A stretch of 64,000 nt of DNA from an uncultured Gammaproteobacteria bacterium (GCA_964651815.1 CAZYWG010000002.1:28522-92521); one strand, 5' to 3'. Positions 41,450-64,000 are shown, counted from the stretch's first letter. The notes: generated by a model from the sequence alone, not told the origin. Made by a program: numbers and translations.

Positions 41450-43834
41450 TTGACTTCTTTTCACGGAATTGGTTATATTAAGATAGTGCACGTAAAGAAT
41501 TTATCACAAGAGCCGGGTCACACAGAACATAAAAAACATTATCCCTTTTTGGATATTGAGCATAAAATTAGTCTTTTAGTATTTGCGTTACTTGCCATTG
41601 TTGGAATTTCTTTAACTTTTTTTATCAACAATAGTACCAAAAGAATTCTATTCACCACAGAAAGTTCAAATTCTCTCCAAATATCAAGTTTCAATCCCAG
41701 TTACTTTGGGCAGAAACTCTCAGTTCCACACACAGACAATGAAATGATTGTGAGATACCGTCCGACGGTCGATATTCAAGCTGGAAGTCAAGGTTCGTCA
41801 AGTTTTAAACCTAGTGATATAACAGGAGGCATTCCACAGGAAGCAATAGATGCTTTAAAACAGATTGGTGTCACATCAATGGAAAAAGTAATAAAAAACG
41901 CAAGCACAACTTCAACTGCAGCCCAAACTTATATATCAAATATTTATAAACTTACACTTTCTCCGGGTGCCGATCTTACAGCTGCGATGCAGGCAGTTTG
42001 TACTGATTCGAGTATTGAAATGTATTGCGAACCAAATTATAAACTTTCCCTTGCAACGCAACCCTCATCGGCCGGTGTCGGGCAGCTCTCAACTGTAGCG
42101 ACAACAGGGGACCCTAGAGGTGGGAAAATAGCTTTAGTTGATGCGCCTCTTCCGGTAGGCTACAACGCAGCAGCACAGGCTATGGGAATGCCATCAATTT
42201 CCCAAAGTCAGGTTATGAGTGGTGCAGAGGCGCCAAGAACAGATCAGTACTTAGGACATTCACTTGCTATAGCAATTGAATTGTTCTCTGTAGACTCAAT
42301 TACTCCGATTATATACGCCGGTGCTTGTGGTGATCTTTGCTCAAATAGTGATATAGCAAATGCAATTGTTTACTCCTCAGATAACGGCGCAAAAGTAATT
42401 TACCTTGGAATAAGTGGTAATTTTCCCCAAGGCGTTGAACCTTTAAGTATTAATAGCGCTGTTAGTTATGCCAAAAGTAAAGGTGCAGCTGTAGTCATAG
42501 CCAACATTAATAGTTCTCTTACTTCCTACGCTTCTCAGCACAAAAAATTGTCACTCCTTGAGAAATTCTTTTCCCTACTCGCTCCACACAAAGCGTTTGC
42601 AGATCCACCTGCACCTCCAACTTCTACATGTGGAAATTGCAGTGGCACTGCTCCCACAGCCGGCAGCGTAGCTAACAGTCTAAATACATTAGCTAACTCA
42701 TTCAACAGTGGTACGATCACCAATGCAACTCAGGTACAAGCTTATATGGCCATATATAACGCTAATGCAGGTACGCTAAACCAATCAAATGGAGGGCAAC
42801 AAGCCCTAACTATGTTGAATGCATCCGGAGCTAAAGCAATAGAAGCAGAAAAAACATTTCAAGAGACCCAGGGAGGAGGATTATTTGCATTAAATCAAGC
42901 TCTTCAGAATTTTAGTAACGATGCCGAAAAAGCTAACACAGCTCTCCAACAAAATTTGCAAGCAAAAGGTGATAATTCAAATCCATTAAATGATGTTAAG
43001 GGTGGTCTGGGAGGCGCGCTTCAAAGTGCGGTATTCCTCCAGGCAAAAGATATAAATCCAGGAGCTGAGAACGCACAAATTTTGGAAACTATGGCTAAGG
43101 GTTTCTCAGAAGAAACTGGGACTTACGATATTGACGCGATTATGTCACAGGTTGCCTTACTACCTTCGGCTCCTCAAAACCCTGATGATCCAGCTGCGGA
43201 TCATAATATACCACCCCCGGGTAGTAATACTAACGGAACTGGCACGGGTACTGGCATGCATAATGGTGGACTCACTACCGGGTCAACGAATCAAAATAAT
43301 GGACCATATACATTTGGTGGTGGACAAACTGGTGTTTTTTATAACTCCGTCGCAGGACAGGGCTATCCTGTTGGTACATCAGCTATTACTTATAATACTC
43401 CCCCTGCTGGAACTCACTACGGGTCACTTGCAGGGGCGAATTATTCCGGTCTGGGTTCTGCCTACAACGCAGCTCCTGGATCTCAATTTACGGTAGTCGG
43501 TAGTGCTTATGGACCAAATTATGGGCAAACAACTATGCAGATGGCTGCCAATGGTGCCTGGCAACAGGTTGGATTTAGTTATGGTCCTGGACAGAATCCG
43601 GGCCCTGGCTACGGGCAGCCGGCCCAAGGAACAACTATGGCTGGTGGTGGCGTTTACAACGGAGCGGGCGCATGGATATTTGGGGGAGCCGGAGGACCAG
43701 ACGGACCTAATTATGGAGGAGGAAGCGGAGGAGGAAATGGTGGTGGAGCGATAGACACAAGTGGTTTTGGTTCTTCTGCAGCGAATGATAATGGCGGAGG
43801 TGGAGATGCAGGTAATGGAGGCTTAGGGCTCTAA
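41450..43834 (+). CDS. large (794-aa) membrane-anchored secreted protein with a possible degenerate subtilase-like core and a Gly/Asn/Tyr/Gln-rich low-complexity C-terminus
   Basis: TTG start from the track (start uncertain), with a TM helix near residue 40. Residues 290-350 (SDIANAIVYSSDNGAKVIYLGISGNF...AVSYAKSKGAAVVIANIN) resemble the S8 region around Asn155, but the GTSMA Ser motif appears as GTAPTA. The tail is GGGNGG-rich. Confidence 0.45.
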   Translation: MTSFHGIGYIKIVHVKNLSQEPGHTEHKKHYPFLDIEHKISLLVFALLAIVGISLTFFINNSTKRILFTTESSNSLQISSFNPSYFGQKLSVPHTDNEMIVRYRPTVDIQAGSQGSSSFKPSDITGGIPQEAIDALKQIGVTSMEKVIKNASTTSTAAQTYISNIYKLTLSPGADLTAAMQAVCTDSSIEMYCEPNYKLSLATQPSSAGVGQLSTVATTGDPRGGKIALVDAPLPVGYNAAAQAMGMPSISQSQVMSGAEAPRTDQYLGHSLAIAIELFSVDSITPIIYAGACGDLCSNSDIANAIVYSSDNGAKVIYLGISGNFPQGVEPLSINSAVSYAKSKGAAVVIANINSSLTSYASQHKKLSLLEKFFSLLAPHKAFADPPAPPTSTCGNCSGTAPTAGSVANSLNTLANSFNSGTITNATQVQAYMAIYNANAGTLNQSNGGQQALTMLNASGAKAIEAEKTFQETQGGGLFALNQALQNFSNDAEKANTALQQNLQAKGDNSNPLNDVKGGLGGALQSAVFLQAKDINPGAENAQILETMAKGFSEETGTYDIDAIMSQVALLPSAPQNPDDPAADHNIPPPGSNTNGTGTGTGMHNGGLTTGSTNQNNGPYTFGGGQTGVFYNSVAGQGYPVGTSAITYNTPPAGTHYGSLAGANYSGLGSAYNAAPGSQFTVVGSAYGPNYGQTTMQMAANGAWQQVGFSYGPGQNPGPGYGQPAQGTTMAGGGVYNGAGAWIFGGAGGPDGPNYGGGSGGGNGGGAIDTSGFGSSAANDNGGGGDAGNGGLGL

Positions 43835-43841
43835 AAAATCT

Positions 43842-44801
43842 ATGGAACACACATATCAAAAAGGGTCATTTTGGGAAAGATTATTGGCCTATTTAATTGA
43901 TAATGTACTAGTCCTAATCCCAATCTTTTTGGTTAATACAATTTTGACCTACCTTCACCTAAATTTCTTTTATCTTAACCTTCTTCTCCCAATAGACTTT
44001 TTAATTATTGCGCTTTACAACGTTTTTCTTGTAGCAAGGACAGGATCCACAATTGGTAAAAAACTTCTAAAACTTAAGGTGGTTGACACTGAATACCTTG
44101 ATGTATCTCTGAAAAAAGTTTTAATGCGCGAAGTTTTAGGAAAACTTATCTCTAGTGCAAGTTTTGGCTTAGGCTTTGTTTGGGTTTTAAAGGACAAGCA
44201 AAAACAAGCCCTTCATGACAAAGTTGGAAAAACGTATGTTGTAAAACTAAATAAAGAAGGAAGTTTAATTCCTTCTGAAGCGAGTCGCCCAAAACTTTTT
44301 GAAACTGTTCTCTTTTTTGTTTTTTCTATTCCGCTTTTTCTTTTACTCATTTATTTCATTACCTATTCAACCGTTGGTATTCCAACACAAATTACAGGTG
44401 ATATGATGGAACCTACTCTAAAACCAGGCCAATATGTCTTAGTCAGACCGCCAATATTTATAAAACGGTCCGATATTGTAGTTTATAATGCAGTGATTGA
44501 TGGAAAACCGGTGCAGTTTTTGCAAAGAGTAATTGCCCTTCCGAATGAAACTATCGTTTTAAAAAATTCAGAGATTTATATTAATGGCAGAAGGCTTGCA
44601 CAAAGCAGAGTCATACCAAAAGGTGTAAAAACAAAAGCAGGTCTCTTTTTACAAGAGAATAGGGCTATAAAACTTTATTATGGCTTTTTCATCTTAATGG
44701 GAGATAATAGAGAAGCAAGTCTTGACTCGCGAGATATGGGAGCAATTCCAATTTCTGCAATTACAGGAAAAGCATCTAGTTGTGTTTGGAATTGTCGTTA
44801 A
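43842..44801 (+). CDS. RDD-family membrane domain fused to a signal peptidase I (S26) homologue that appears catalytically degenerate
   Basis: N-terminal ERLLAYLIDNVLV... RDD pattern with TM helices. The C-terminus has box B as GDMMEPTL (Ser to Met), box D as LQRVIALPNETI (Lys to Gln) and a conserved box E, GDNREASLDSRDMG. Confidence 0.6.
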   Translation: MEHTYQKGSFWERLLAYLIDNVLVLIPIFLVNTILTYLHLNFFYLNLLLPIDFLIIALYNVFLVARTGSTIGKKLLKLKVVDTEYLDVSLKKVLMREVLGKLISSASFGLGFVWVLKDKQKQALHDKVGKTYVVKLNKEGSLIPSEASRPKLFETVLFFVFSIPLFLLLIYFITYSTVGIPTQITGDMMEPTLKPGQYVLVRPPIFIKRSDIVVYNAVIDGKPVQFLQRVIALPNETIVLKNSEIYINGRRLAQSRVIPKGVKTKAGLFLQENRAIKLYYGFFILMGDNREASLDSRDMGAIPISAITGKASSCVWNCR

Positions 44802-50183: not shown

Positions 50184-50513
50184 TTATGAATCAGACTTTA
50201 TTTTTCTGATATCCTCAAGTAGTTCTTTCTTAACCAATCCGGCCGCTTTTATAATTTTTTCTTCCGCGTCAACTACTTTCTCATTTAAAAATTTCCAAAT
50301 TTTTTCGTGATTGAGGGTATTTATGTATGAAACAAATGCCTTTTTATCCTCAGACGTGAGCTCTGACAAAATTGTATCAAGTATTACTTGATGTAAGTGC
50401 GACTCTGCTAAATCTTTTAAATGACTTTTCTCGGTATCTGACATGTGAAGTGAATCAATTTCTAACTCAATTGACTCCATCTCAATTTTAAAGCTATAAA
50501 AATGTTTAATCAT
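50184..50513 (-). CDS. hypothetical acidic helical protein
   Basis: The ORF, with a 4-nt overlap with the upstream gene. No motif. Confidence 0.35.
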   Translation of the reverse strand: MIKHFYSFKIEMESIELEIDSLHMSDTEKSHLKDLAESHLHQVILDTILSELTSEDKKAFVSYINTLNHEKIWKFLNEKVVDAEEKIIKAAGLVKKELLEDIRKIKSDS

Positions 50514-51463
50514 TTAATCTCAACAGGGCCTAGTGGTATTTTATCACCCGGATCATCAATAAAAAAATAAAGGACTGGCCCTTTTTGTTGTCCATCTTTT
50601 CTTTCAAGATATGTCATAACCTCAGGCGAACCACCAAGTTGTTTTCCTGTTGACTCACCGGGCCCCGCATCCCCAATTACCGCAACTACTGCTTTTCCAT
50701 TTTCCGGATTAACAACAAGCATTTTGCGGTATTTAAAAAATGAAATATATTCTCCAGTATGCTCGGCAAACCCGGGTGCCAGAAAAGTCTGAGTCGCAAT
50801 ATAATATTTTTCTCGCTCTATATCTTTTTGGGTAAGTGCTTCTTTTGATGGAGCAAAATACCCCCATGCTCCTAATCCCGGCGCCATTCCCGAATTATAA
50901 GTTTGCGAGGAATCCGAATCTTCAAAGTGAGTTTCAATATTGTCTCCTGGATACAACATTAAATGCTGCTCAGCCCCTACGTATCCATAGGAGCGATTTA
51001 AGCGAATTCCGCTAAGCTCGGGAACTATTTTAAATCCAAAATCCCTTGATAATATCCCTGAGATAGAACTTTCCTCATCAGGAGTTAAAGCGCGGACTTC
51101 TTTTGGGAGAAAAGATGAAAGATCAGAAACTAAAAAAACATTCTTTTCTACAGGAAGTCTTTGTTCTTCAACGGCAGGCAATGTGTTTGGTTGAAGATAT
51201 CCCGCGACAGGACTTGAAAGAAGCATGAGTGCAGAAACAGAACCAATTGCAAAATTTTTTGTCCCGTTTACAAAATCTTCAACTATGTCTCCGTGCTTTT
51301 CCCAAAACGCAGTTTGAAATTCTCTGTGTTTTGAAACCCACTTCTTTGAAAGTTTTTCGTAAGAACCCGAATTTTTATTATCCATTACATTAATAATACC
51401 AAAAAAATCAGGCAGTATTGAAGCAATGAGGAAAAACCAGTATACTACCTCTATGGCAAGCAT
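50510..51463 (-). CDS. membrane-anchored protein with a possible RlpA-like double-psi beta-barrel (DPBB) C-terminal domain
   Basis: N-terminal TM helix (VVYWFFLIASILPDFFGII). The C-terminal KMLVVNPENGKAVVAVIGDAGPGESTGKQLGGSPEV resembles the RlpA/3D V-x-V-x-D-x-GP block. Confidence 0.4.
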   Translation of the reverse strand: MLAIEVVYWFFLIASILPDFFGIINVMDNKNSGSYEKLSKKWVSKHREFQTAFWEKHGDIVEDFVNGTKNFAIGSVSALMLLSSPVAGYLQPNTLPAVEEQRLPVEKNVFLVSDLSSFLPKEVRALTPDEESSISGILSRDFGFKIVPELSGIRLNRSYGYVGAEQHLMLYPGDNIETHFEDSDSSQTYNSGMAPGLGAWGYFAPSKEALTQKDIEREKYYIATQTFLAPGFAEHTGEYISFFKYRKMLVVNPENGKAVVAVIGDAGPGESTGKQLGGSPEVMTYLERKDGQQKGPVLYFFIDDPGDKIPLGPVEIK

Positions 51464-51761
51464 TACTCAAACCTGCTCCAATTGTGGAAAACAATTTCTC
51501 ATAATTGACTCCGAACAAAAATTTCTGCGTGAAAAAAACCTACCTGATCCCGTTAAGTGTTACTCTTGTAGACAAGCAAGAAGAATGGCTCTGAGGAGTG
51601 AACAGAATCTATATAAAACTACGTGTCAAAAATGCGGAAAACAAATAATTGTCGCTTTTGATCCTCAAAAAACTCAAAATGCAATTTATTGCAAAGAGGA
51701 CTTTGATAAGTATTTCATGGAGAATGATCCTATAATTTCCGATCCACTTCCGGAAACTTAA
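51426..51761 (+). CDS. small multi-CxxC zinc-ribbon protein
   Basis: CSNCGK...CYSCRQ...CQKCGK...C spacing, i.e. two treble-clef/ribbon units. The start may be ATG 51453. The stop lies 1 nt before the next gene. Confidence 0.5.
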   Translation: MRKNQYTTSMASITQTCSNCGKQFLIIDSEQKFLREKNLPDPVKCYSCRQARRMALRSEQNLYKTTCQKCGKQIIVAFDPQKTQNAIYCKEDFDKYFMENDPIISDPLPET

Positions 51762-51762
51762 A

Positions 51763-52683
51763 ATGACATCTGAAGCATTTTTTATAGAACTACAAAGGCT
51801 GATATCTTCACACCCAAAGAGGAATTCGCATAACGTAAATTCTGAAGACTGCGATTATGGAGATCAACTTTATTTTTGCAAAAATATGCTCTACTGTTTT
51901 GATTCCGTGCGCTCTGCGGATTGTATATATGGTACAGACATCCATAATTCTGTCAAATGTGTCGATTGCGACTATATGGATAAATCCGAACTTTCATATG
52001 AATGTGTAGACAGTCGCAGTTGTTTCAATTCAAATTACTTGGAGTATTGTTCAAATCTGACCGATTCATCATATTGCTATGACTGCCATAACTGCAGCAA
52101 TACTTTCGGATGTGTTGATCTTAGAAACAAGTCATTTTGCATATTCAATAGACAGCTTTCTGAAGAGGAATATAAGAAAACAATTGAAAAATACAAAATA
52201 TTGTCTACGGAAAAAGTACTTTCTATGGTTGAGGAGCTTAAAAAAAAATATCCCCTAACTCAGACCCGAGGTTTAAACAATGTAAACTCGCCTTATGGGA
52301 ACAATACGGACGACAGCCGTGATAGCTACTTATGTTTTGATTCAAATTCGCTTGAGAATTGCGGTTACTTATATGATTGCGGCGAAAGCAAATATAGCTA
52401 TGATGGAACCTTCTCAAGTGATCTGGAACTTTCTTACGAATCTATAGATTCGGGAGTTTTATTTAACTGCAATTATTCTTTGTGGTCGGGAAATTCTCTA
52501 GACAGTAACTATATCGTTTCGTGTGTCGATGTTAAAAATTGTCTCGGTTGTGTTAACCTTGGACATAAAGAGTATTGTATTTTGAATAGGCAATTTACGA
52601 AAGAGGAATACGAAAAAATTGCGCCGGTCATCTTAAAAGAATTGGTCGAAAAAAATTTGGGTTGGGGAAATTTAATATTCTAA
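51763..52683 (+). CDS. cysteine-rich repeat protein (34 Cys; two internally duplicated halves)
   Basis: Repeating about 13-aa units of the type C-x-D-C / YCYDC...C..L.NK.FCI. Both halves end in FCIFNRQLSEEEY and YCILNRQFTKEEY respectively. No signal peptide. Confidence 0.5.
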   Translation: MTSEAFFIELQRLISSHPKRNSHNVNSEDCDYGDQLYFCKNMLYCFDSVRSADCIYGTDIHNSVKCVDCDYMDKSELSYECVDSRSCFNSNYLEYCSNLTDSSYCYDCHNCSNTFGCVDLRNKSFCIFNRQLSEEEYKKTIEKYKILSTEKVLSMVEELKKKYPLTQTRGLNNVNSPYGNNTDDSRDSYLCFDSNSLENCGYLYDCGESKYSYDGTFSSDLELSYESIDSGVLFNCNYSLWSGNSLDSNYIVSCVDVKNCLGCVNLGHKEYCILNRQFTKEEYEKIAPVILKELVEKNLGWGNLIF

Positions 52684-54989
52684 ATTATTGGCTCGGGAAA
52701 ATCAGTATCAGTATTAGTCATTAATTTCTCTGCCGAACTACTCCAATTTTTAATTTCGTTTTCAACAGCTGTTTTGTTACTACCGTATTTTACTCTTGAA
52801 TTGTCAATAATTTCCCTTGAATAATCAATTCCGGGTTTTGGGACATTAATGGTTTTGGCAGAAAAAGGTGGCGTAAGCTTGCCATCAACAGACATTTTAA
52901 TGTACATTTCGCGGGTGTTAAGATTAATCATATCATCCGCAGAAAATGTGGGAGCAAATTCGTGGGATAGATATGCCGCATCATCTCCTCCAACTGCAAA
53001 TGAAATAATTGTACCTACATTCCCAAAAGCCGTTGCTTTTACATCATCTGGAAGTTGTGCAATATATTGATGTGCAATTGTTAAATCAAGATGATATTTA
53101 CGGGCTTCTGATAAAATAGAAGAAAATGCGTCTGTCGCAAAGTTTTGGAACTCATCAACATAAAAATAAAAATCGCGCCTCTCTTCTTCTCTGACTTTTG
53201 CTCGGGCAAGAGCCGCCTGCTGAATTTTTGTTATAAACATAGATCCCAAAAATGCGGCATTCTCATCGCCCACTTTACCTTTTGAAATATTCAATAAAAC
53301 GATTTTCCCTTCATCCATAAATTTCCCAAAATCAAGGACGTTTTTCCCTTGTCCAACCATATTTCTTATTGTGGGATTGGAAACAAACTGGCCAACCTTG
53401 TTTAGAATCGGAATAACCGCGTCATTTGAAAAACGCTCGTTCCATGATGAAAATTCATTAACCCAAAAACTTTTTACAACAGGATCCTGGATTTGTTTAA
53501 TAACCCGTTGGCGATATGTTGTGTCGGAAAGAATTCTTGGAATGCCTAAAACATTCGAGTCGGGTGTTTCGAGCAGAGCAAGCGTTATAAATCTGATTAT
53601 ATGTTCCATCCTGGAATTCCAATTAGATTCAAATTGCTTTTTGAATATTGCTATGAAAAAAGTTGCTAAATGTTGTCTCATCTCAGGGTCGCGAACCGGT
53701 TCAAGCGGATTAAATGCAATGGGAAAATCCCTGTCTGCTGGGTTTACATAAACAACATCCTTTATTCTTTTTTGGGGGACATATTTTAAAAGCTCTTGTG
53801 CTAAGTCTCCGTGCGGGTCCAGAATGCAACAGCCTTCTCCACCTTGAATATCCGCAATCAAAAGTAATTGCATTAACCGGCTTTTTCCGCTTCCAGTTTT
53901 CCCAACAACATATAAATGACGCCTTCTGTCAATTCTTTTTAAGCCGAATCTTTTGCCTTCATTTCTGTAATTTGTTTCTCCAAAAATTGAAATTTCATTT
54001 TCCTTGACGCTTCCTTCACGGGGTAAAATATCTGGTGCCGGCGCTCGCTTTGAGGTAGTATTCACAACGTTTGAAACTACAGTTCCTTTGTATGGAAAAT
54101 GATAAACGGTTGCTATCTCCGGAATTGACCAAAGATCCCCATTTTCAAAAATTCGCGCCGAGTATGCATTAGCCAAACCTTCACTAATCCTCCCTTTTTT
54201 GAATTCGTTGCCGTGGCTTTTTAACGCTTTATATAAATTTGCAATTGTCGTAAGTTTGGATTTGGCACTCGTGTGGTCCGGAGCAGAATAAGCAATCCTT
54301 AGTTTTCCAAAAAAAACATCACCATCAAATTTTGTGGCCTCGCGCGTTTCGTCCGTGGAACGACCCGAAAGTCTATACACGAACCCAGTTATACCCCGCT
54401 CCCAGAATTTTGAACCGGTGCGCTTTAGACACAATTGAACATAAACCTTTTCGTTCATTGCAGTTTTTGATAAGACAGCAGAAAGATTTTTGAGTAAATC
54501 TTCTTGAATGTTGCGCCAAGTAATAAGCGAATTAACGCTGGATTTTTTAAAACCGAGTTCTATAACAATTGGATGGTCGTTTGAAGAAAAATAATCTTTT
54601 GTTTCCTCAAGCTCCGCTTCTGGAAATTGTGCATAAAGCTGAGATTCAATTATGTTTTTAAAGTGTTTTGGAATAACTATATAAAAAGTCATGAATTGCT
54701 CATTTGATACCATTTCTAGACTTAAATGAGTACCTGATGGAAGAAGTCTGTGAATAGACTTAAGAAAAGCTTCCATTGCTTCCTCTTTTTGTTCGTTGTT
54801 TGAAGGAATTTTTATTCTCAGAAAAACATTCGCCCGCTCCTCAAGTTTTTTAGAAAGCATTTGTTGGAAAAGCAATTTCTTGACTATTTTCCAGACAAAA
54901 AATGCGACAATTGGAGTACTCACGACAACAAAAAGGAGTTCGACGAGCAAAATAATTCCGTTTATTAGAAAGTCAATAACACCTTGCAT
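52680..54989 (-). CDS. VirB4/VirD4/TraG-like (FtsK-HerA superfamily) P-loop ATPase with an N-terminal TM anchor
   Basis: Walker A YVVGKTGSGKSRLMQ, then ILDPHGDL, Walker B YFYVDEFQNF, and an N-terminal hydrophobic hairpin. Convergent 4-nt stop overlap with the Cys-rich gene. Confidence 0.65.
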   Translation of the reverse strand: MQGVIDFLINGIILLVELLFVVVSTPIVAFFVWKIVKKLLFQQMLSKKLEERANVFLRIKIPSNNEQKEEAMEAFLKSIHRLLPSGTHLSLEMVSNEQFMTFYIVIPKHFKNIIESQLYAQFPEAELEETKDYFSSNDHPIVIELGFKKSSVNSLITWRNIQEDLLKNLSAVLSKTAMNEKVYVQLCLKRTGSKFWERGITGFVYRLSGRSTDETREATKFDGDVFFGKLRIAYSAPDHTSAKSKLTTIANLYKALKSHGNEFKKGRISEGLANAYSARIFENGDLWSIPEIATVYHFPYKGTVVSNVVNTTSKRAPAPDILPREGSVKENEISIFGETNYRNEGKRFGLKRIDRRRHLYVVGKTGSGKSRLMQLLLIADIQGGEGCCILDPHGDLAQELLKYVPQKRIKDVVYVNPADRDFPIAFNPLEPVRDPEMRQHLATFFIAIFKKQFESNWNSRMEHIIRFITLALLETPDSNVLGIPRILSDTTYRQRVIKQIQDPVVKSFWVNEFSSWNERFSNDAVIPILNKVGQFVSNPTIRNMVGQGKNVLDFGKFMDEGKIVLLNISKGKVGDENAAFLGSMFITKIQQAALARAKVREEERRDFYFYVDEFQNFATDAFSSILSEARKYHLDLTIAHQYIAQLPDDVKATAFGNVGTIISFAVGGDDAAYLSHEFAPTFSADDMINLNTREMYIKMSVDGKLTPPFSAKTINVPKPGIDYSREIIDNSRVKYGSNKTAVENEIKNWSSSAEKLMTNTDTDFPEPII

Positions 54990-55019
54990 ATGAGTAGTAT
55001 ACTATGTTTTAGTGGTGAG

Positions 55020-55835
55020 TTAAACGAGGGCAAGTCCGCCGTAAAGGCCAGCTTCACCGAGTTCGGATTTTGCAATTTTTGGTAAATCAAAAGGTATAAT
55101 TTTCTTCAACTCTTCATTTAATGACCCTATAAAATAATCAAACTGGTTTGAAACCCCTCCTCCAAGAATTATCACTTCAGGAGACCATAATGCAGTAACA
55201 TTTGCTATGCCGGGTGCAAGATATACGCTTCCATATTCCTTCCAAATTGCCTGATCATGACAATCCTCCCCAGCAACACCAAAGATTTTACGAAACGCGC
55301 TCCCCGACGCGTAAGATTCAAAACATCCATACTGCCCGCAATTCCAAATTTCTGTTTCTTTAAAATTTATAATCTGATGCCCGGGCTCAAAGCCTACATG
55401 GCTCTCAACAATTTTACGCTCCACTACTAAACCCCCACCTATACCAGTACTCAGCGTTATAAATCCAACCGTCTTATAGTCTCGCCCGGCCCCAAAAGCC
55501 GCTTCTCCAAGCGTTGCCATGCTTGCATCATTTTCTATTACAAATTTTGCGTTGGGAAATTTTTTACCCAGCCACCCTGAAAAACTTTCACCCTTCCAGT
55601 TTTGACGATGTCCCCACCAGGCTAATGCCGATTTTTCCCTGTCTATAACACCCGCTGCTGCAATAGAAAACTGTTCAACTTCTGCGCTATAAGACATGAG
55701 ACTTTCCGCAATTTTGTTGATTAAATCGGAAAACTGCTGAGGAGTACTAAACTTCTTGATGTCTAAGAACGTCTTTCTGTCTTCCGAAACTCCAACTCTA
55801 ACAAATGTCCCACCTATATCTATACAAGCAATCAT
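55020..55835 (-). CDS. ROK-family sugar kinase (glucokinase-like)
   Basis: IACIDIGGTFVRVG, ROK zinc motif NCGQYGCFESYASG, and GTGIGGGLV. Confidence 0.75.
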   Translation of the reverse strand: MIACIDIGGTFVRVGVSEDRKTFLDIKKFSTPQQFSDLINKIAESLMSYSAEVEQFSIAAAGVIDREKSALAWWGHRQNWKGESFSGWLGKKFPNAKFVIENDASMATLGEAAFGAGRDYKTVGFITLSTGIGGGLVVERKIVESHVGFEPGHQIINFKETEIWNCGQYGCFESYASGSAFRKIFGVAGEDCHDQAIWKEYGSVYLAPGIANVTALWSPEVIILGGGVSNQFDYFIGSLNEELKKIIPFDLPKIAKSELGEAGLYGGLALV

Positions 55836-58674: not shown

Positions 58675-61638
58675 CTAGGCTGCACGAAGAGTATCCCAAT
58701 CACTTTGAATACTTAATATTGCTTGCTCTTGTTCTGTTAAAGATCCACCGTCATTAAGCTTACCCGCAATTTGAGATACACGATCTATCATTGTGACAAA
58801 CACCGACTCCATTGCATGACGAAACATAACCTCGTGATCTTTTGCTCCGGGATAATTATGAGCTATCTCATGCCCAAAAGTCCTCAAGGCCTCAGTAAAA
58901 TTCACATCCAAAAGTCCTTTGTGTAAACCTATTGCTTTTTGGCCCAAATTAATTCCTTTACTACCGGTTCCCTCATAAATAAAAAGATCATTTACTACGG
59001 CCATGCCAGTCGTAAGCTCCGCATACGTTTTAAGTAGTCCCAGTTGCGCAAGTTGCCTTTCTGAGGGACCTACTACAATTTCAAATTCATTAACGTCATC
59101 CCCTTCCGGATTCAACCGACTTACAACGCTTCTTAGCTTCTGCATCAACGCATTTCGAGTAACATCGGCAGGTGTTGCTTCCGTCACTGTTCGTACTGTT
59201 GAAATTTCAGCTTGATTTTGCTCATTAACTAAGTCCACTAAATGTCTTCCGGTTAAGTAACCTGCGCTCTGACCAAGCCTACCGTAAAAATCTCCACTAT
59301 TTCTCCACTCCATATATTTTTCGATTTCAGATTTGCCGTGTACTTCAATTTTTGGTTTCGGCACTACCTTATCCAGAGCATTAACCATACCAACTAATCC
59401 CGGTAAATTTTCGTCCATTTTTGCAACTCTTTCTTTTTCACTATCAGAAATTTTAACTTCTCTTTCAATAACTTCTCCATGTTGAATTAGTTCTGGACTG
59501 TCCGGTTGAACAACATGAACTTCCCCGAATTGTCTCTGAAGTTCTTTGTGTCTATTAATTAAGTCTTTTTCATCTTCTGCAAGAGCGGCCGGATCTTTTG
59601 AAATTGCTAAAATGTATAAATTTTCATCCTCGGCAGTCCAAGGCTTTTGATTACCAGGAAATATTTCTCCTATATCTTTTGGGCCCGCTTCTCCGGCTTG
59701 TCTGTCGGAAGAATCCGAGATGTCAATCTGCCCGACAATTTCTTCCCCCGAATCTCCTGCCGGATTCGCCTGCAAACCTTCCGCCAGAGCTGAGTTCGAC
59801 GCATTTTTTAAGGCTTCCCTAAATATGGAGGTGAACTCAGGATTGAAATCAATTTCAATAAAAGTACCTTGGTCATTTTCATTTTTGATATTTCTTGTAA
59901 TAAGAGCCGTTTCTTCCGTTGTAAAATCATATTTTGCATCAAATGTTGTTAAAAATTCTCCTTGAGATGTAAAAATCTTGTCAAAAACATGCTCGCTTAA
60001 ACCATATGCTACTACACCGCGCAATAAAAATAACAGTCTTTGGGCATCATCTTTTTGCTTTGGTAAAGCGTGGAACAGTAAATCTTTTGATATTTTATCT
60101 TTTAAATATAACCTGGCGGTGTCAGGTCTCTCTTCTCTTTCTTCCAATCTCAAAATATGAGGAGCAAGACGACTCGCCGCCATTTGCAAAAAAGCGGAAG
60201 GATCTTCTATTTCCGGAAAGTCTTCATAAAAAACCTCCATTCCAAATTCTTGGGCAAATTTTTCTTTTTCATGCTGAGGCAATTTAGGTGCTTCATTGCT
60301 TGCAACTTCAAGAGAACCTAGCTTGCTGCTCGCTTTTGGCATACCGATTTGTTCAAAATATGATGGGCAAATAATATATCCCTGTTTTTGTAGTTCGGCA
60401 ATTTGGCCACGGTCCGCAGCACGATCGAAACTCAAATACTTTTTTGATCCGAATTCTTTTGAGTAATTTTCTTTATCCCAACCCTTTTTATAAGGCAGTT
60501 TCCTTGCAAGTTTTTCTATTATTACACTTGCACCTTCCGCTTCACCGAAATTCGAATCAATATGTCCAGCCCACAGATATTCTGATGTGTGTAATTGTCC
60601 TACAACATCGTCCATCGACATATTACTAATCATGGGATCAAGATACTGCGCCAATTCAAATTGATTAACCGGCGGCCGATCAATACTCATTTTATATTTA
60701 ATGTTATTTAGTCTTATTGTTGCATTCTCTGGTCCAACCCAATAATCTTCTGCTGTTGCCCCCTTTCCTTTGTAATTCATAACTTGGCCGTTTATAAAAA
60801 GGCGTCCTCGAGTGGGGACTGATCCGTCTGATAATGGTAGCCATTTTATTGCTCCGTATTGATTTTCGTAATCCATATTTTGTAAATAAGGATTTTCTTT
60901 GGATACGCCAAGAGATGGTAGCTGCTGCAATGCTTGAACTACATCAGGGTTTGCAGTTGTAATAATATATGCATTTTTTCCGGTAGGACGTGCTTCAGCA
61001 ATATCAGCAACCAACCAATCATGATTTACACGATAACGTGGATCCAGATTCTGCATTTCCGCAAGCTCTCCATTAACCTGGGCAGCTTTTGCTAAACGAT
61101 AATGTACGGCCCATCCTTCTCCATCTATTTCAAATTGTTCAACTCCAAAGTCTCTTAAAAAACGAATTGCGGTTTGTTTAAGACCAATTCCGTTTCCACC
61201 GGCAGTATTAATATCTGCTGGTTTCTCCGAATGAGGACTTAAAACTCCTGTTGGATCGGCAAATGGCCAGTCTCCTTCTATTCTGAATTGTGTTGCGCCA
61301 TCTTTATGAGGAACACCCGAAAATCTTACTCCGTCAAGCGTACCGGGATGCTGAGGATTATGATCAACAAAGTTTTGAACGAGTTCTCTTGTAAGCCATG
61401 CGGCGTTGTACTCATCCCTAGATTTATCCAAAAAACTATCTGTAGCTATTGCGTGAACATCAACTTTTTTTCTTCTATAAAATTCCTGTAATAATCTTTG
61501 GTCTGTAACTACTCCGTCAATTTTTATTGCTGCATCAGGACGAACCTGACGCGCATCTCCTCTTCCCGGAATTAATCTTCTTAGTCCGCTAAATTTTGTA
61601 TCTTTGGGACCTCCGGCTCCCGCGTCTACTGGCTCCAT
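58675..61638 (-). CDS. orphan 987-aa protein with an N-terminal GHKL (Bergerat-fold) ATPase-like region and a C-terminal HExxH zincin-like motif
   Basis: N-box-like RELVQNFVDHN, G2-like NTAGGNGIGLKQTA, and C-terminal FGHEIAHNYPGAKDHE. GC is locally higher (about 43-50% in sampled segments) than the flanks. Confidence 0.5.
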   Translation of the reverse strand: MEPVDAGAGGPKDTKFSGLRRLIPGRGDARQVRPDAAIKIDGVVTDQRLLQEFYRRKKVDVHAIATDSFLDKSRDEYNAAWLTRELVQNFVDHNPQHPGTLDGVRFSGVPHKDGATQFRIEGDWPFADPTGVLSPHSEKPADINTAGGNGIGLKQTAIRFLRDFGVEQFEIDGEGWAVHYRLAKAAQVNGELAEMQNLDPRYRVNHDWLVADIAEARPTGKNAYIITTANPDVVQALQQLPSLGVSKENPYLQNMDYENQYGAIKWLPLSDGSVPTRGRLFINGQVMNYKGKGATAEDYWVGPENATIRLNNIKYKMSIDRPPVNQFELAQYLDPMISNMSMDDVVGQLHTSEYLWAGHIDSNFGEAEGASVIIEKLARKLPYKKGWDKENYSKEFGSKKYLSFDRAADRGQIAELQKQGYIICPSYFEQIGMPKASSKLGSLEVASNEAPKLPQHEKEKFAQEFGMEVFYEDFPEIEDPSAFLQMAASRLAPHILRLEEREERPDTARLYLKDKISKDLLFHALPKQKDDAQRLLFLLRGVVAYGLSEHVFDKIFTSQGEFLTTFDAKYDFTTEETALITRNIKNENDQGTFIEIDFNPEFTSIFREALKNASNSALAEGLQANPAGDSGEEIVGQIDISDSSDRQAGEAGPKDIGEIFPGNQKPWTAEDENLYILAISKDPAALAEDEKDLINRHKELQRQFGEVHVVQPDSPELIQHGEVIEREVKISDSEKERVAKMDENLPGLVGMVNALDKVVPKPKIEVHGKSEIEKYMEWRNSGDFYGRLGQSAGYLTGRHLVDLVNEQNQAEISTVRTVTEATPADVTRNALMQKLRSVVSRLNPEGDDVNEFEIVVGPSERQLAQLGLLKTYAELTTGMAVVNDLFIYEGTGSKGINLGQKAIGLHKGLLDVNFTEALRTFGHEIAHNYPGAKDHEVMFRHAMESVFVTMIDRVSQIAGKLNDGGSLTEQEQAILSIQSDWDTLRAA

Positions 61639-61699: not shown

Positions 61700-64000
61700 C
61701 TAGGGGTTAGTGTATTCTTTCCAGGATTTTATTTTTATGTCCTCGAGCTTTTTTTTAGTTATAGCTTTGATAAAGAGTTCTGCTTTTTGAAAATTGGTAA
61801 AAATAGGAATATTTTTGTCAACTGCCATGCGCCTCATTATATATCCATCCGCAAAATCTTTTCTTGCTTCGTCATCTGAAATATTTACTGCCATATCTAC
61901 TTCACCGTTCTGGAAATAATCGAGAATATTAGGATTTTTATTCTCATGTATTTTATTCAATTTTCTCACTCGTATCCCTTTTTTCTGAAAATAAGCGCTA
62001 GTTTTTTCTGTTGCAAAAAGAGGAATTTTTAGAGTTGCAAGACGTCTCGCACTTTCTAGAAATCTTGCTTTATTATCGTCTCCCCCAAGGCTTATAAAAA
62101 TTCCTTTCTTAGGGATTTTTCCTCCAACGGAAAGCTCCGCAAGTAAAAATGCTTCTTCAGCATCGTCTCCAAAACATGCAACTTCCCCAGTTGATGCCAT
62201 TTCTACATCTAAAACTGGATCTGCCCCAGTCAATCTAGCAAAAGAAAACTGCGCTACTTTTGCCGCAACAAAATCAAAATCAGCAAAATTATTATGTAAA
62301 TACTGAATTTTTTTATGGAAGAAGGCATCAGTTGCCGCTTCAATCATGTTAATTCCTGTCACTTTTGAAATGAATGGAAAAGTCCTTGATGCTCTGAGGT
62401 TAATTTCGATAACAGAAACTACGTTGTCGCGCGCTAAACATTGAATGTTGAATGGCCCAGTAATTTTAAGAGACGAAGCCAGATCGCGCGCTATTTTTTT
62501 AAGTGAGCGGAGAGTTTCAAAATAAATTTTTTGAGCCGGCAAAAGAATGGATGCGTCGCCCGAGTGGACTCCCGCATTTTCAACATGCTCCGAAACAACA
62601 AATATTTTTAACTCTCCATCTTCCGCAACGCAATCTACTTCAATTTCTTTTGCGTCTTTTATGAATTTAGAAACCGTTACCGGGTGGTCTTTTGAAACAA
62701 CTATTGTCTTGAAATATTTTAAAAGGTCTTCTTTGGTATAACAAACTTTCATATTACTTCCAGACAACACATAAGATGGACGGATCAATACTGGAAACCC
62801 TAAATTTTTGGAAAATTTTGTAACTTCTGAAACTTTTACAAATTTAAACCAAGATGGTTGACTGATTTTGAGTGAATCAAGAAGCGCCGAAAATTTAGTT
62901 CTGTCTTCAGCCCTATCAATATCTTTTGAACTCGTTCCCAAAATATGGCACCCATACGCATCCAGAGATTTTGCGCGATTATTAGGGGTTTGACCACCAA
63001 CTGAAATTATTACGCCGTATGAATTTTCAAAATCATAAATGTCAGCTATTCGCTCAAATGTCAATTCTTCAAAATAAAGACGGTCAGAAATATCATAGTC
63101 GGTTGAAACAGTTTCAGGATTGCAATTGATAGTAATTGAGCGCTTTTTGTTTTTCTTAAGTGCAAGAACTGTATTGACACTTGTCCAATCAAATTCCACT
63201 GATGAACCGATTCTATAAGGACCCGAACCCAAAACAATTACTCCTTCCTTTTTTAGCGGCTCAACATCATTGTGGCTTCCTGCATAAGTCATGTAAAGAT
63301 AATTGGTTTTTGCGGGAAATTCTCCTGCCAGAGTATCTATTTGAAAAACAGATGGAATAATATTGTATTTTTTACGAATCTCCCTAATTTCAAGCCCTTT
63401 TTTCCCAACCAGCATTCCAATTCTTTTGTCTGAAAACCCCAAGATCTTCAGTTTTAAAAGCGTATCAGCATCCAATTTTTTAGAGCTATATAGCTTCTTT
63501 TCTTCATCAACTATGTTTTTGATTCTGTAAAGAAACCAGGGGTCAATTCCTGAAAGCCGATAAATATCATCTACGGAATAACCTTCATAAAAAGCCCTCG
63601 CTATACCAAACATTCTGAAAGAGGTTGGTGCAAGTAGTGTTTTGATATCCGGCTTCTTGTTTTCGTTTCGGAAAACATCTTCATCAACTGCTCCTTCAAA
63701 ACCCAAATCAAGCATGCGCAGCGCCTTCTGATATGCTTCTTCAAAAGTTCTACCAATTCCCATCACCTCACCTACTGACCTCATACTGCTACCAATTACG
63801 TCTTCTGCGTGTTTGAATTTTTTCGTATCCCAACGCGGTATTTTAACCGTTACATAGTCTAATGCCGGCTCAAAACAAGATTGAGTTACTTCAGTTACCT
63901 TATTTTTTAATTCAGTTAAACTTTTCCCCAGCGCCAATTTCGCTGCAACATATGCAAGTGGATAACCGGTTGCTTTACTCGCTAAAGCTGAGCTACGTGA
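61700..64000 (-). CDS. carB: carbamoyl-phosphate synthase large subunit, C-terminal half plus MGS-like domain; the 5' end lies beyond the window
   Basis: ATP-grasp domain 2 (GVHSGDASILLPAQKI), an oligomerisation domain and C-terminal MGS-like GIFISLGGDDNK. The reading frame continues past nt 64000 (ASKATGYPLAYVAAKLALG). Confidence 0.9.
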   Translation of the reverse strand, partial: SRSSALASKATGYPLAYVAAKLALGKSLTELKNKVTEVTQSCFEPALDYVTVKIPRWDTKKFKHAEDVIGSSMRSVGEVMGIGRTFEEAYQKALRMLDLGFEGAVDEDVFRNENKKPDIKTLLAPTSFRMFGIARAFYEGYSVDDIYRLSGIDPWFLYRIKNIVDEEKKLYSSKKLDADTLLKLKILGFSDKRIGMLVGKKGLEIREIRKKYNIIPSVFQIDTLAGEFPAKTNYLYMTYAGSHNDVEPLKKEGVIVLGSGPYRIGSSVEFDWTSVNTVLALKKNKKRSITINCNPETVSTDYDISDRLYFEELTFERIADIYDFENSYGVIISVGGQTPNNRAKSLDAYGCHILGTSSKDIDRAEDRTKFSALLDSLKISQPSWFKFVKVSEVTKFSKNLGFPVLIRPSYVLSGSNMKVCYTKEDLLKYFKTIVVSKDHPVTVSKFIKDAKEIEVDCVAEDGELKIFVVSEHVENAGVHSGDASILLPAQKIYFETLRSLKKIARDLASSLKITGPFNIQCLARDNVVSVIEINLRASRTFPFISKVTGINMIEAATDAFFHKKIQYLHNNFADFDFVAAKVAQFSFARLTGADPVLDVEMASTGEVACFGDDAEEAFLLAELSVGGKIPKKGIFISLGGDDNKARFLESARRLATLKIPLFATEKTSAYFQKKGIRVRKLNKIHENKNPNILDYFQNGEVDMAVNISDDEARKDFADGYIMRRMAVDKNIPIFTNFQKAELFIKAITKKKLEDIKIKSWKEYTNP

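Follow-up and report, generated by a model that had tools for sequence, protein, structure and literature searches.

Three adjoining genes in the 64,000-nucleotide stretch CAZYWG010000002.1:28522-92521 (hereafter the window, with positions counted from its first letter) are the subject of this study. The window is a low-G+C (about 37%) chromosomal stretch of a genome from the Candidate Phyla Radiation (CPR, or Patescibacteria). The three genes encode a zinc-finger protein (51426-51761, + strand, 111 amino acids as open reading frame), a Cys-rich repeat protein (51763-52683, + strand, 306 amino acids), and an ATPase (52680-54989, - strand, 769 amino acids). The only reasonable reading of the comparative evidence is that they constitute one functional module, widespread in CPR bacteria, since the gene order survives rearrangement, the zinc finger occurs fused to the repeat domain as well as to the ATPase, and the proteins diverge in a correlated manner. 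The ATPase itself, by profile and fold comparison, is a homologue of type IV coupling proteins (T4CPs) of the VirD4/TrwB type. The orphan class to which such ATPases belong is already known; what is new, as far as the literature was searched, is that a zinc-finger protein and a Cys-lattice solenoid constantly accompany it.

The arrangement had been described in an original prediction made from the DNA alone, and recomputed coordinates agree with it: a single nucleotide separates the zinc-finger and Cys-rich open reading frames on the + strand, and the convergent ends of the Cys-rich and ATPase open reading frames share four nucleotides (52680-52683).

Conservation and linkage of the three genes

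A single-sequence scan of the Genome Taxonomy Database (GTDB) genome collection with the ATPase returned at least three loci, and L001-L004 all carry the triad, three homologous loci keeping it amid otherwise unrelated neighbours. A metagenome scan with the Cys-rich alignment gave 80 loci, in which linkage was counted only where the contig has room. By this measure the ATPase gene adjoins the Cys-rich gene in 64 of 67 loci, and the zinc-finger gene lies upstream of the Cys-rich gene in every case (74/74), so that the co-occurrence anticipated for the Cys-rich pair and the ATPase is borne out. Sixty of the adjacent ATPase genes are convergent, mostly 3-9 nucleotides apart, and four are co-directional. 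The three exceptions (L017, L050, and L077) are not real counter-examples, as a contig end or a small inserted gene lies within about 0.6-1.4 kilobases (kb) of the Cys-rich gene. In divergent loci the genes are reordered to ATPase, Cys-rich, and zinc finger, some with extra Cys-rich copies, and the ATPase is anchor-less there; L084 carries a duplication of the whole zinc-finger/Cys-rich pair. Across 34 loci, divergence from the window copies is correlated most strongly between the ATPase and the Cys-rich protein (r = 0.94), and also between the other pairs (0.82 and 0.80).

CPR genomes are gene-dense, and the ATPase lies on the opposite strand, as might be expected of unrelated genes that are chance neighbours in a compact genome. 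However, the adjacency persists while the other neighbours change, and also where an inversion has turned the genes into a co-directional operon. The fusions of the zinc finger to the solenoid and to the ATPase speak against chance as well, and this explanation is effectively refuted.

Fusions of the zinc finger to the repeat domain are common in the family at large. When 1.84 billion representative proteins were searched with a profile, 3,172 clusters (50% identity) were obtained at E<=1e-3, and 907 at the stricter E<=1e-30; all named members of the family are CPR. The distant members are mostly 550-600 amino acids long, with the two zinc-finger domains zf_Tbcl and zf_Tbcl_2 fused before the repeat domain, which is often followed by a second zinc-finger pair. 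The zinc finger and the repeat domain are fused in thousands of proteins (e.g. P0147, P0241, and forms of about 590 amino acids), and a search with one fused protein gave at least 7,940 matches. The named sources among these are nearly all Patescibacteria, Parcubacteria, Liptonbacteria, or Paceibacterota; the remaining ones are given as 'bacterium' only, or once as Actinobacteria. Since most relatives are a single chain, the zinc-finger and solenoid proteins appear to act as one unit.

Fusion to the ATPase is seen in at least two cases (L092 and L097), where zf_Tbcl_2 is joined to the C-terminus of the motor. In the Parcubacteria loci L091, L092, and L093, arrays of 5 to >8 tandem fused paralogues surround one or two short ATPases of 472-544 amino acids, which are about 49% identical to the window motor and have neither the anchor nor the N-terminal domain.

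Among the accompanying genes, one for a GNAT acetyltransferase recurs near the ATPase in L002 (10316-10864), where it is located between the ATPase and Cys-rich genes, in L066 (5901-6398), and in S. epibionticum (SEML1_0292).

The ATPase and its relationship to coupling proteins

The ATPase is built, in order, of a transmembrane helix, a DUF8128-type alpha/beta domain, a VirD4/TrwB-type nucleotide-binding domain with an all-alpha insert, and a disordered tail. The AlphaFold2 model (mean predicted local distance difference test score, pLDDT, of 82) contains the corresponding long N-terminal helix, alpha/beta domain, P-loop core, and disordered tail. The N-terminal hydrophobic segment, a predicted membrane anchor, covers residues 5-33 (54891-54977, - strand), and a similar transmembrane-like segment is present in 49 of 50 close homologues. 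It had been predicted to be a transmembrane hairpin; the hydrophobic stretch is there, but the model has one long helix and the hairpin is unclear. The alpha/beta domain follows at residues 52-300 (54090-54836, - strand). Its name rests on the precomputed Pfam annotations of homologues, as DUF8128 was not reported for the N-terminal domain by our own Pfam scan. The same domain is common to the conjugative T4CPs of Embleya and Niallia plasmids and to gp156 of Bacillus phage G, and in L097 it is encoded by a separate upstream gene.

The nucleotide-binding and all-alpha domains occupy residues 333-720 (52830-53993, - strand), with support from Pfam, AlphaFold2, and Foldseek. The motifs named in the original prediction are all present in the 769-residue protein: Walker A (GKTGSGKS, residues 363-370, 53880-53903) and Walker B (DEFQNF, residues 612-617, 53139-53156), both on the - strand and invariant in 50 homologues, and DPHGD at residue 391. 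In the AlphaFold2 model the all-alpha insert (residues 435-560) consists of helices between the core strands.

Several comparisons place the protein in the VirD4/TrwB/TraG branch, and the resemblance to VirD4 and TraG noticed at first is thus upheld. Pfam TrwB_AAD_bind matches residues 356-648 with 33.1 bits against a cut-off of 20.5, and TraG-D_C passes its cut-off at residues 607-671. The best NCBIfam match is the VirD4-like model conju_CD1115 (residues 354-667), but at 58.8 bits against a cut-off of 250; the TraD models reach 16-36 bits against cut-offs of 366-647, so the protein falls below the curated equivalog thresholds for T4CPs. In Foldseek, the motor aligns with TrwB over the whole of TrwBdeltaN70, with a TM-score of 0.63-0.67 normalised to TrwB. 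Searching the sequences of the PDB gave marginal matches to the TrwB P-loop only (E 1e-3), even with a 50-sequence profile. Profile-profile alignment by hhalign matched the protein to the T4CP of an Embleya plasmid (NZ_CP108778.1, WP_331738717.1; E 1.8e-46, 649 columns) and that of a Niallia plasmid (NZ_CP137637.1, WP_338473401.1; E 3.3e-34, 635 columns), where homology is full-length and includes the N-terminal domain. Because of this full-length profile homology to plasmid T4CPs, the ATPase is classified as a coupling-protein homologue of monoderm ancestry. Such ancestry agrees with the published MPF-FATA ancestry of Patescibacteria's type IV secretion system (T4SS) (PMC12102498).

By the same comparisons the protein is not a VirB4, an FtsK, or a HerA. 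The resemblance to VirB4, also suggested originally, does not extend beyond the superfamily level: no VirB4/CagE_TrbE_VirB model is among the Pfam matches, the NCBIfam models TrbC_conju and Bac_Flav_CT_G reach 14-17 bits against cut-offs of 800 and 262, and the Foldseek match to TrwK has an E-value of 4.9e-14, yet a TM-score of 0.27-0.31 and a root-mean-square deviation of about 14 A. Clustering with the housekeeping FtsK/SpoIIIE family was not seen in the profile and fold comparisons. The window protein has no FtsK_SpoIIIE match, and in the homologue P0002 the match is confined to the P-loop (E 0.012, 15.5 bits against a cut-off of 24); a role as an FtsK substitute was rejected as well, canonical FtsK being separately present in CPR. 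As to HerA, its fold match in Foldseek is likewise at superfamily level, the DUF87 match (31.6 bits) is restricted to the P-loop segment 356-423, and the N-terminal domain in the AlphaFold2 model is alpha/beta rather than a HAS barrel.

Compared with TrwB of R388, VirD4, TraG, and TraD, the ATPase likewise has a P-loop domain with an all-alpha insert and an N-terminal membrane anchor. It differs in the cytoplasmic DUF8128 domain of about 250 residues between anchor and motor, in a C-terminal PEPII tail, and in having no T4SS or relaxase genes nearby. With the monoderm plasmid T4CPs of Embleya and Niallia it shares homology over its full length, whereas the CPR gene is chromosomal, lies apart from T4SS genes, and has the zinc-finger and solenoid genes as constant neighbours. 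The clusters that hold the Embleya and Niallia T4CP genes also contain PrgI/VirB3-like, VirB4-like ATPase, TcpE, and NlpC/P60 genes, and the T4CP gene is immediately upstream of one for 'replication-relaxation'. These plasmid loci yielded no homologue of the zinc-finger or solenoid proteins. In tblastn searches, relatives of the ATPase were found on 709 plasmid records, of which 526 are typed as non-mobilizable.

Within CPR, ATPase identity is 60-78% among sequences labelled Daviesbacteria, Levybacteria, Saccharimonadales, and Parcubacteria, and the mean column identity across CPR lineages is 64%. The closest relative of the motor outside CPR is a 395-residue, motor-only protein (L088, 7007-8194; 37.6% identity, E 4e-81) on the non-mobilizable alphaproteobacterial plasmid NZ_CP081110.1 of Sulfitobacter, with transposases adjacent. 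Bacillus phage G gp156 (JN638751.1, 90859-93141) has the same architecture as the window ATPase, and large Bacillus phages, including SPO1-like ones, encode full-length or motor-only relatives (phrog_5156, function unknown).

The occurrence of relatives in large Bacillus phages and on many non-mobilizable plasmids raises the question of an anti-phage or inter-bacterial conflict system, in which a HerA/FtsK-type ATPase would act with diversified partners. The tandem arrays of divergent paralogues could be read in this way; the ATPase has PADLOC matches to mad8 and HerA models, and the T4CP-like gene SEML1_0293 of S. epibionticum adjoins, besides the GNAT gene, the CRISPR-Cas9 locus at its cas9 gene. 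However, the PADLOC matches are weak (29-44 bits for the best models and about 14-16 bits for the others; 14-37 bits for mad8 and HerA), those to HerA span short stretches around the Walker motifs, and the partners have no PADLOC match at all. Unlike defence islands, the module is near-universal, apparently vertical, highly conserved, and placed among housekeeping genes; the patchy spread that such a system should show was not seen, and the module was not found in the IMG/VR viral contigs or phage records searched. A conflict system is therefore considered quite unlikely.

The C-terminal tail of the ATPase

After a disordered linker the ATPase ends in FPEPII (52683-52700, - strand), a candidate docking peptide recognised from the homologue alignment and the AlphaFold2 model. 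A tail of the form [FL]P[EQD]P[IL][IVL] is present in all 50 homologues aligned and is disordered in the model. Related tails end the ATPases of L080, L087, L091, and L093b, and the plasmid T4CPs have no PEPII tail. In the L092 and L097 ATPases the fused zf_Tbcl_2 stands in place of the tail. Since the zinc finger replaces the tail exactly where it is fused to the ATPase, the tail is a candidate docking site for the partner. The zinc-finger protein has a conserved C-terminal tail of its own, ...NDPIISDPLP (51726-51758), which, like FPEPII, carries an acidic-Pro-Ile-Ile element; judging by this similarity, the two tails might compete for one binding site.

The zinc-finger protein

The zinc-finger gene most likely starts at Met10 of the longest open reading frame, that is, at 51453 rather than 51426, and would then encode 102 residues (51453-51761, + strand), as suggested by the L001 and L002 homologues. 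In the 111-residue numbering, zf_Tbcl (PF13451) matches residues 14-54 with 36.3 bits (gathering score 24) and zf_Tbcl_2 (PF23477) matches residues 61-94 with 31.1 bits (gathering score 27), in line with the multi-CxxC zinc ribbon foreseen for this gene. The protein therefore consists of two treble-clef/zinc-ribbon modules with three CxxC motifs and one extra Cys. The ligands are C17, C20, C45, and C48 in the first module and C67, C70, and C89 in the second, in which the fourth ligand is Asp/Glu in the window protein and Cys in L080 and L087. The protein is basic, with an isoelectric point (pI) of 8.7.

The Cys-rich repeat protein

The gene of the Cys-rich protein occupies 51763-52683 on the + strand. 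The protein contains 22 Cys (7%), and not the 34 first counted; across the family the number varies from 15 to 28, with 22 as the median. Its pI is 4.7 and its net charge about -17. Neither a signal peptide nor a transmembrane segment is present, from which a cytoplasmic location would be expected. No Pfam or NCBIfam family and no PDB sequence match was obtained.

Two blocks of 9-residue repeats make up most of the chain. Block 1 (residues 27-132, 51841-52158, + strand; pI 4.3) is modelled by AlphaFold2 as a short-strand solenoid and has the consensus C-[FVI]-D-S-x-x-[CS]-x-[ND], in which every third residue is Cys/Ser; the cap motif at its end is FGCVDLRNKSFCIFNRQLSEEEY (52105-52173). Block 2 (residues 171-278, 52273-52596, + strand; pI 4.05) duplicates block 1 within the same chain, and its own cap motif is LGCVNLGHKEYCILNRQFTKEEY (52543-52611). 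The C-terminal half aligns to the N-terminal half with an E-value of 2.5e-17, and both caps fit GCVxLxxKxYCI[FL]NRQ[LF][ST]xEEY. In an alignment of 106 homologues, all Cys-bearing columns fall on a 3-residue lattice with a period of 9, and most alternate between Cys and Ser. The AlphaFold2 model (pLDDT 73) has two stacks of very short strands with helices between them. The protein is thus pictured, mainly from this model, as a thin solenoid with a Cys/Ser core and possibly a metal-binding terminal rung.

Foldseek searches with the model returned non-significant beta-helix matches only (best E 3.8e-3, TM-score about 0.1), and the known beta-solenoid families (pentapeptide, hexapeptide, RTX, and antifreeze) gave no repeat-motif or significant fold match. 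Two of the top non-significant matches, the pentapeptide-repeat protein EfsQnr and the Tenebrio antifreeze protein, likewise have short-period repeats in a solenoid. The core of the antifreeze protein is Cys-lined, as in the Cys-rich protein, and pentapeptide-repeat proteins are acidic DNA mimics. Both differ from the Cys-rich protein, which has a period of 9, Cys/Ser at every third residue, two blocks, and GCVxLxxKxYCIxNRQ caps. For the repeat domain there is no Pfam model, and neither a name nor a description was found in the literature searched; the 9-residue Cys/Ser-lattice repeat is therefore a candidate for a new repeat fold. A weak match of phrog_15341 (function unknown) to the Cys-rich protein (E 6e-6) and to the fused form P0258 (2e-4) may be compositional; tblastn found no phage record, and no Cys-rich relatives were found in IMG/VR viral contigs or GenBank phages.

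With a protein so rich in Cys, a metal or redox function has to be considered, in which the protein would store, buffer, or deliver metal (Zn, Fe-S) or sense redox state, and the ATPase would be regulated by it or load it. The Cys residues that persist in the wider family are C108, C111, (C114), C117, C188, C191, C254, C263, and C272. Those of the terminal rung (C108, C111, (C114), C117 and C254, C263, C272) are fully conserved, and position 126 alternates between His, Cys, and Tyr across the superfamily. In addition, at least one of two Cys is kept in each of the pairs 87|90, 105|111, and 245|260. However, most Cys columns swap with Ser and are uncoupled, with no strong pair in the column correlations (maximum r 0.49), which fits small-residue packing in a thin core. 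Moreover, no known metal-site motif or family was matched, and metal handling is not a known function of T4CP-type translocases. A metal or redox role for the module thus appears improbable. Of the two partners described at first as metal-binding, the zinc-finger protein is so by its Pfam domains, whereas in the repeat protein the free alternation of most Cys positions with Ser does not bear the description out.

Relation to the published orphan coupling proteins

In a survey of 3,035 Patescibacteria genomes, 5,713 VirD4-like T4CPs were found in 2,918 genomes, and only 148 of these T4CPs are near virB4 (Quinonero-Coronel et al. 2025, PMC12102498). T4CP homologues thus occur in 96% of CPR genomes, as compared with 80% for virB4, the two being rarely adjacent, and exaptation of the orphan T4CPs was left possible by the authors (PMC12102498). 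The window ATPase very probably belongs to this orphan set. The text of the survey does not mention zinc, and it names cysteine only for the hydrolase domain of VirB1 (PMC12102498). Literature searches for DUF8128, PF13451, the CPR coupling protein, and cysteine-rich proteins yielded no description of the module or of the linkage. Patescibacteria represent a large share of bacterial diversity and most of them live attached to other microbes; their unexplained orphan T4CPs now gain a constant partner in a family with 3,172 clusters.

The T4SS of S. epibionticum ML1 is essential, and it 'lacks recognizable coupling and relaxase proteins' (PMC10633639). Epibiotic growth requires the Patescibacterial T4SS in the single species that was tested, and the system has neither an assigned coupling protein nor an assigned substrate (PMC10633639). 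Of two T4CP-like genes in S. epibionticum, SEML1_0293 is non-essential and SEML1_0142 is essential. As the zinc-finger/Cys-rich pair is probably absent from S. epibionticum, these transposon-sequencing data do not test the module.

A proposed function of the module

On the plasmids the T4CP gene adjoins a relaxase-type partner, and in CPR the homologous gene adjoins the zinc-finger and solenoid genes. Therefore, the zinc-finger/solenoid unit may have taken the place of the relaxase as a client or adaptor of the ATPase, in a module of T4CP descent. This proposal is tentative, and we would give it somewhat less than an even chance. The partners, rather than a DNA-relaxase complex, are probably what the orphan ATPase acts on. 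The variable copy number of the partners (one pair in the window, a duplicated pair in L084, and 5 to >8 copies in the L091-L093 arrays) also fits clients or adaptors better than fixed subunits of a machine.

From the observed homology, architecture, gene linkage, and fusions of the module, one possible scheme can be described as follows. The ATPase would form a hexameric, ATP-driven ring, like TrwB and VirD4, which in the lineage of the window would be tethered to the membrane, on its cytoplasmic face, through a single N-terminal helix. The zinc-finger/solenoid unit would dock on this ring, probably via the flexible C-terminal [FL]PEP[IL][IV] tail, and ATP hydrolysis would then engage, remodel, or hand on the unit. 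Hand-over would most plausibly be to the CPR type IV secretion channel, which would be encoded elsewhere in the genome; the ATPase is thus a putative coupler of substrate to the T4SS channel.

Comparable organisations are known. In the Dot/Icm system of Legionella, the T4CP DotL carries dedicated soluble adaptors (DotM, DotN, IcmS/IcmW, and LvgA) on a C-terminal extension, and DotN is a zinc-binding, Cys-containing subunit. We know of no kinship in sequence or fold between DotN or IcmSW and the zinc-finger/solenoid proteins, so the likeness would be one of organisation only. Similarly, in type VII secretion, the ring ATPase EssC/EccC stands beside variable numbers of paralogous clients, which it recognises via short terminal signals. 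EssC/EccC differs in its branch of the superfamily and in its substrates, which are small helical WXG/LXG proteins.

Several observations weigh against a client or adaptor of a secretion ATPase. The ATPases of L080 and L087 have no transmembrane segment, and those of Parcubacteria have neither this segment nor the N-terminal domain, so coupling at the membrane is not universal; the reduced secretion, DNA-uptake, or episymbiosis-related apparatus suggested at first is accordingly a conjecture. The partners carry zinc fingers and no export signal, as is more typical of intracellular proteins, and they are about 48-56% identical where the ATPase is about 60%, unlike fast-evolving effectors. In two of seven Parcubacteria contexts (L094 and L096) the fused paralogues are more than 10 kb from any such ATPase, and L095 has its nearest one at a distance of 8 kb. 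The flanks of L001-L004 and L091-L097 showed no T4SS or relaxase gene. Finally, no PF13451 protein is listed in the annotation of S. epibionticum ML1, which leaves the only genetic data without bearing on the module.

These points lead to the main rival explanation, a cytoplasmic nucleic-acid machine independent of any T4SS. The ATPase would here be a putative DNA or RNA translocase, working for example in the processing of imported DNA or in recombination and repair, and the partners, which would bind or mimic nucleic acid, would serve in loading, targeting, or regulating it. The TrwB-type all-alpha DNA-binding domain is kept, zinc ribbons commonly bind nucleic acid, one source labels a fused homologue 'Zn ribbon nucleic-acid-binding protein', and the membrane anchor is absent in many lineages. 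The neighbouring genes point in the same direction. In L080 (8344-11172) and L087 (3953-6793), the ATPase/Cys-rich/zinc-finger operon runs into a gene for a UvrD-type helicase of about 945 residues with a C-terminal nuclease-like Cys cluster, and in L094 (6068-16573) two fused zinc-finger/solenoid paralogues are located among ftsK, recA, PIN, RNase H-like, and recO genes. The conservation of the ATPase (64%) and its near-universal presence (PMC12102498) resemble those of housekeeping genes, and the module is never beside virB4 in the loci examined. On the other hand, the solenoid blocks are strongly acidic (pI 4.0-4.3), so that direct binding to DNA is not expected of them, and the DNA-repair neighbours come from few lineages, possibly one, with compact genomes. 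Furthermore, at least one CPR genome already possesses a canonical, essential FtsK, and L094 has a canonical FtsK as well. On balance, a nucleic-acid machine is regarded as possible, though unlikely.

Returning to the client or adaptor proposal, a stronger form of it would make the zinc-finger/solenoid proteins CPR-specific cargo, either protein effectors or acidic, DNA-mimicking 'pilot' proteins in the former role of the relaxase, which the orphan ATPase would recruit and the essential T4SS would deliver into hosts. This form is doubtful. If it were true, the Parcubacteria arrays would be effector repertoires, and the CPR T4SS would gain its missing coupling protein together with its first candidate substrates.

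Other features of the window

The module lies among housekeeping genes. In a Pfam scan of 38 window proteins, every identifiable gene was of this kind, including guaB, guaA, gltX, recJ, secDF, purH, carB, a release factor gene, genes of sugar-nucleotide enzymes, and a gene of a class II (Asp/Lys/Asn-type) tRNA synthetase. The scan found no other T4SS component and no relaxase gene in the 64 kb, in agreement with what had been noticed at first. No tRNA gene or Rfam match was found in the window, and with such neighbours a mobile-element or prophage setting was rejected.

Promoter-like sequences precede both transcription directions of the module. TTGAAG-17-TATACT (51418-51446, + strand) ends 7 nucleotides before the probable zinc-finger start, and TTAACT-16-TATACT (54996-55023, - strand) ends 7 nucleotides before the ATPase start codon. 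Both are consensus matches only, and the number of promoter-like sites in the region shows no excess over shuffled sequences. As the -10-like TATACT hexamers (51441-51446 and 54996-55001) are each 7 nucleotides from a start codon, the zinc-finger and ATPase mRNAs may lack a leader or carry a very short one. At the overlapping convergent gene ends no terminator-like site was found.

A gene pair encoding proteins of 317 and 109 residues (50184-51463, - strand) lies upstream of the zinc-finger gene. It is kept in the closest relative, L001 (292 and 107 residues), but more distant loci do not keep it; the pair belongs to no Pfam family and stands outside the conserved module. Comparison with L001 suggests Met27 as the probable start of the 317-residue frame, which would then no longer overlap the zinc-finger gene. 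The 317-residue protein had been described as RlpA-like, an assignment that Pfam does not sustain, as there is no match even at E<=5.

Three further genes of the window may be mentioned. An open reading frame of 794 residues (41450-43834, + strand) without a Pfam family lies in the only G+C-rich stretch (0.449 in 42001-44000, as compared with about 0.37 elsewhere). Another, of 987 residues (58675-61638, - strand), has no Pfam match; a HEIAH (HExxH-type) motif near its C-terminus suggests a metalloprotease-like domain. The carB-like frame (61700-63937, - strand) encodes 745 residues that match the C-terminal part of CarB, and its L001 relative has 1,065 residues; carB may therefore be split or shortened in the window.

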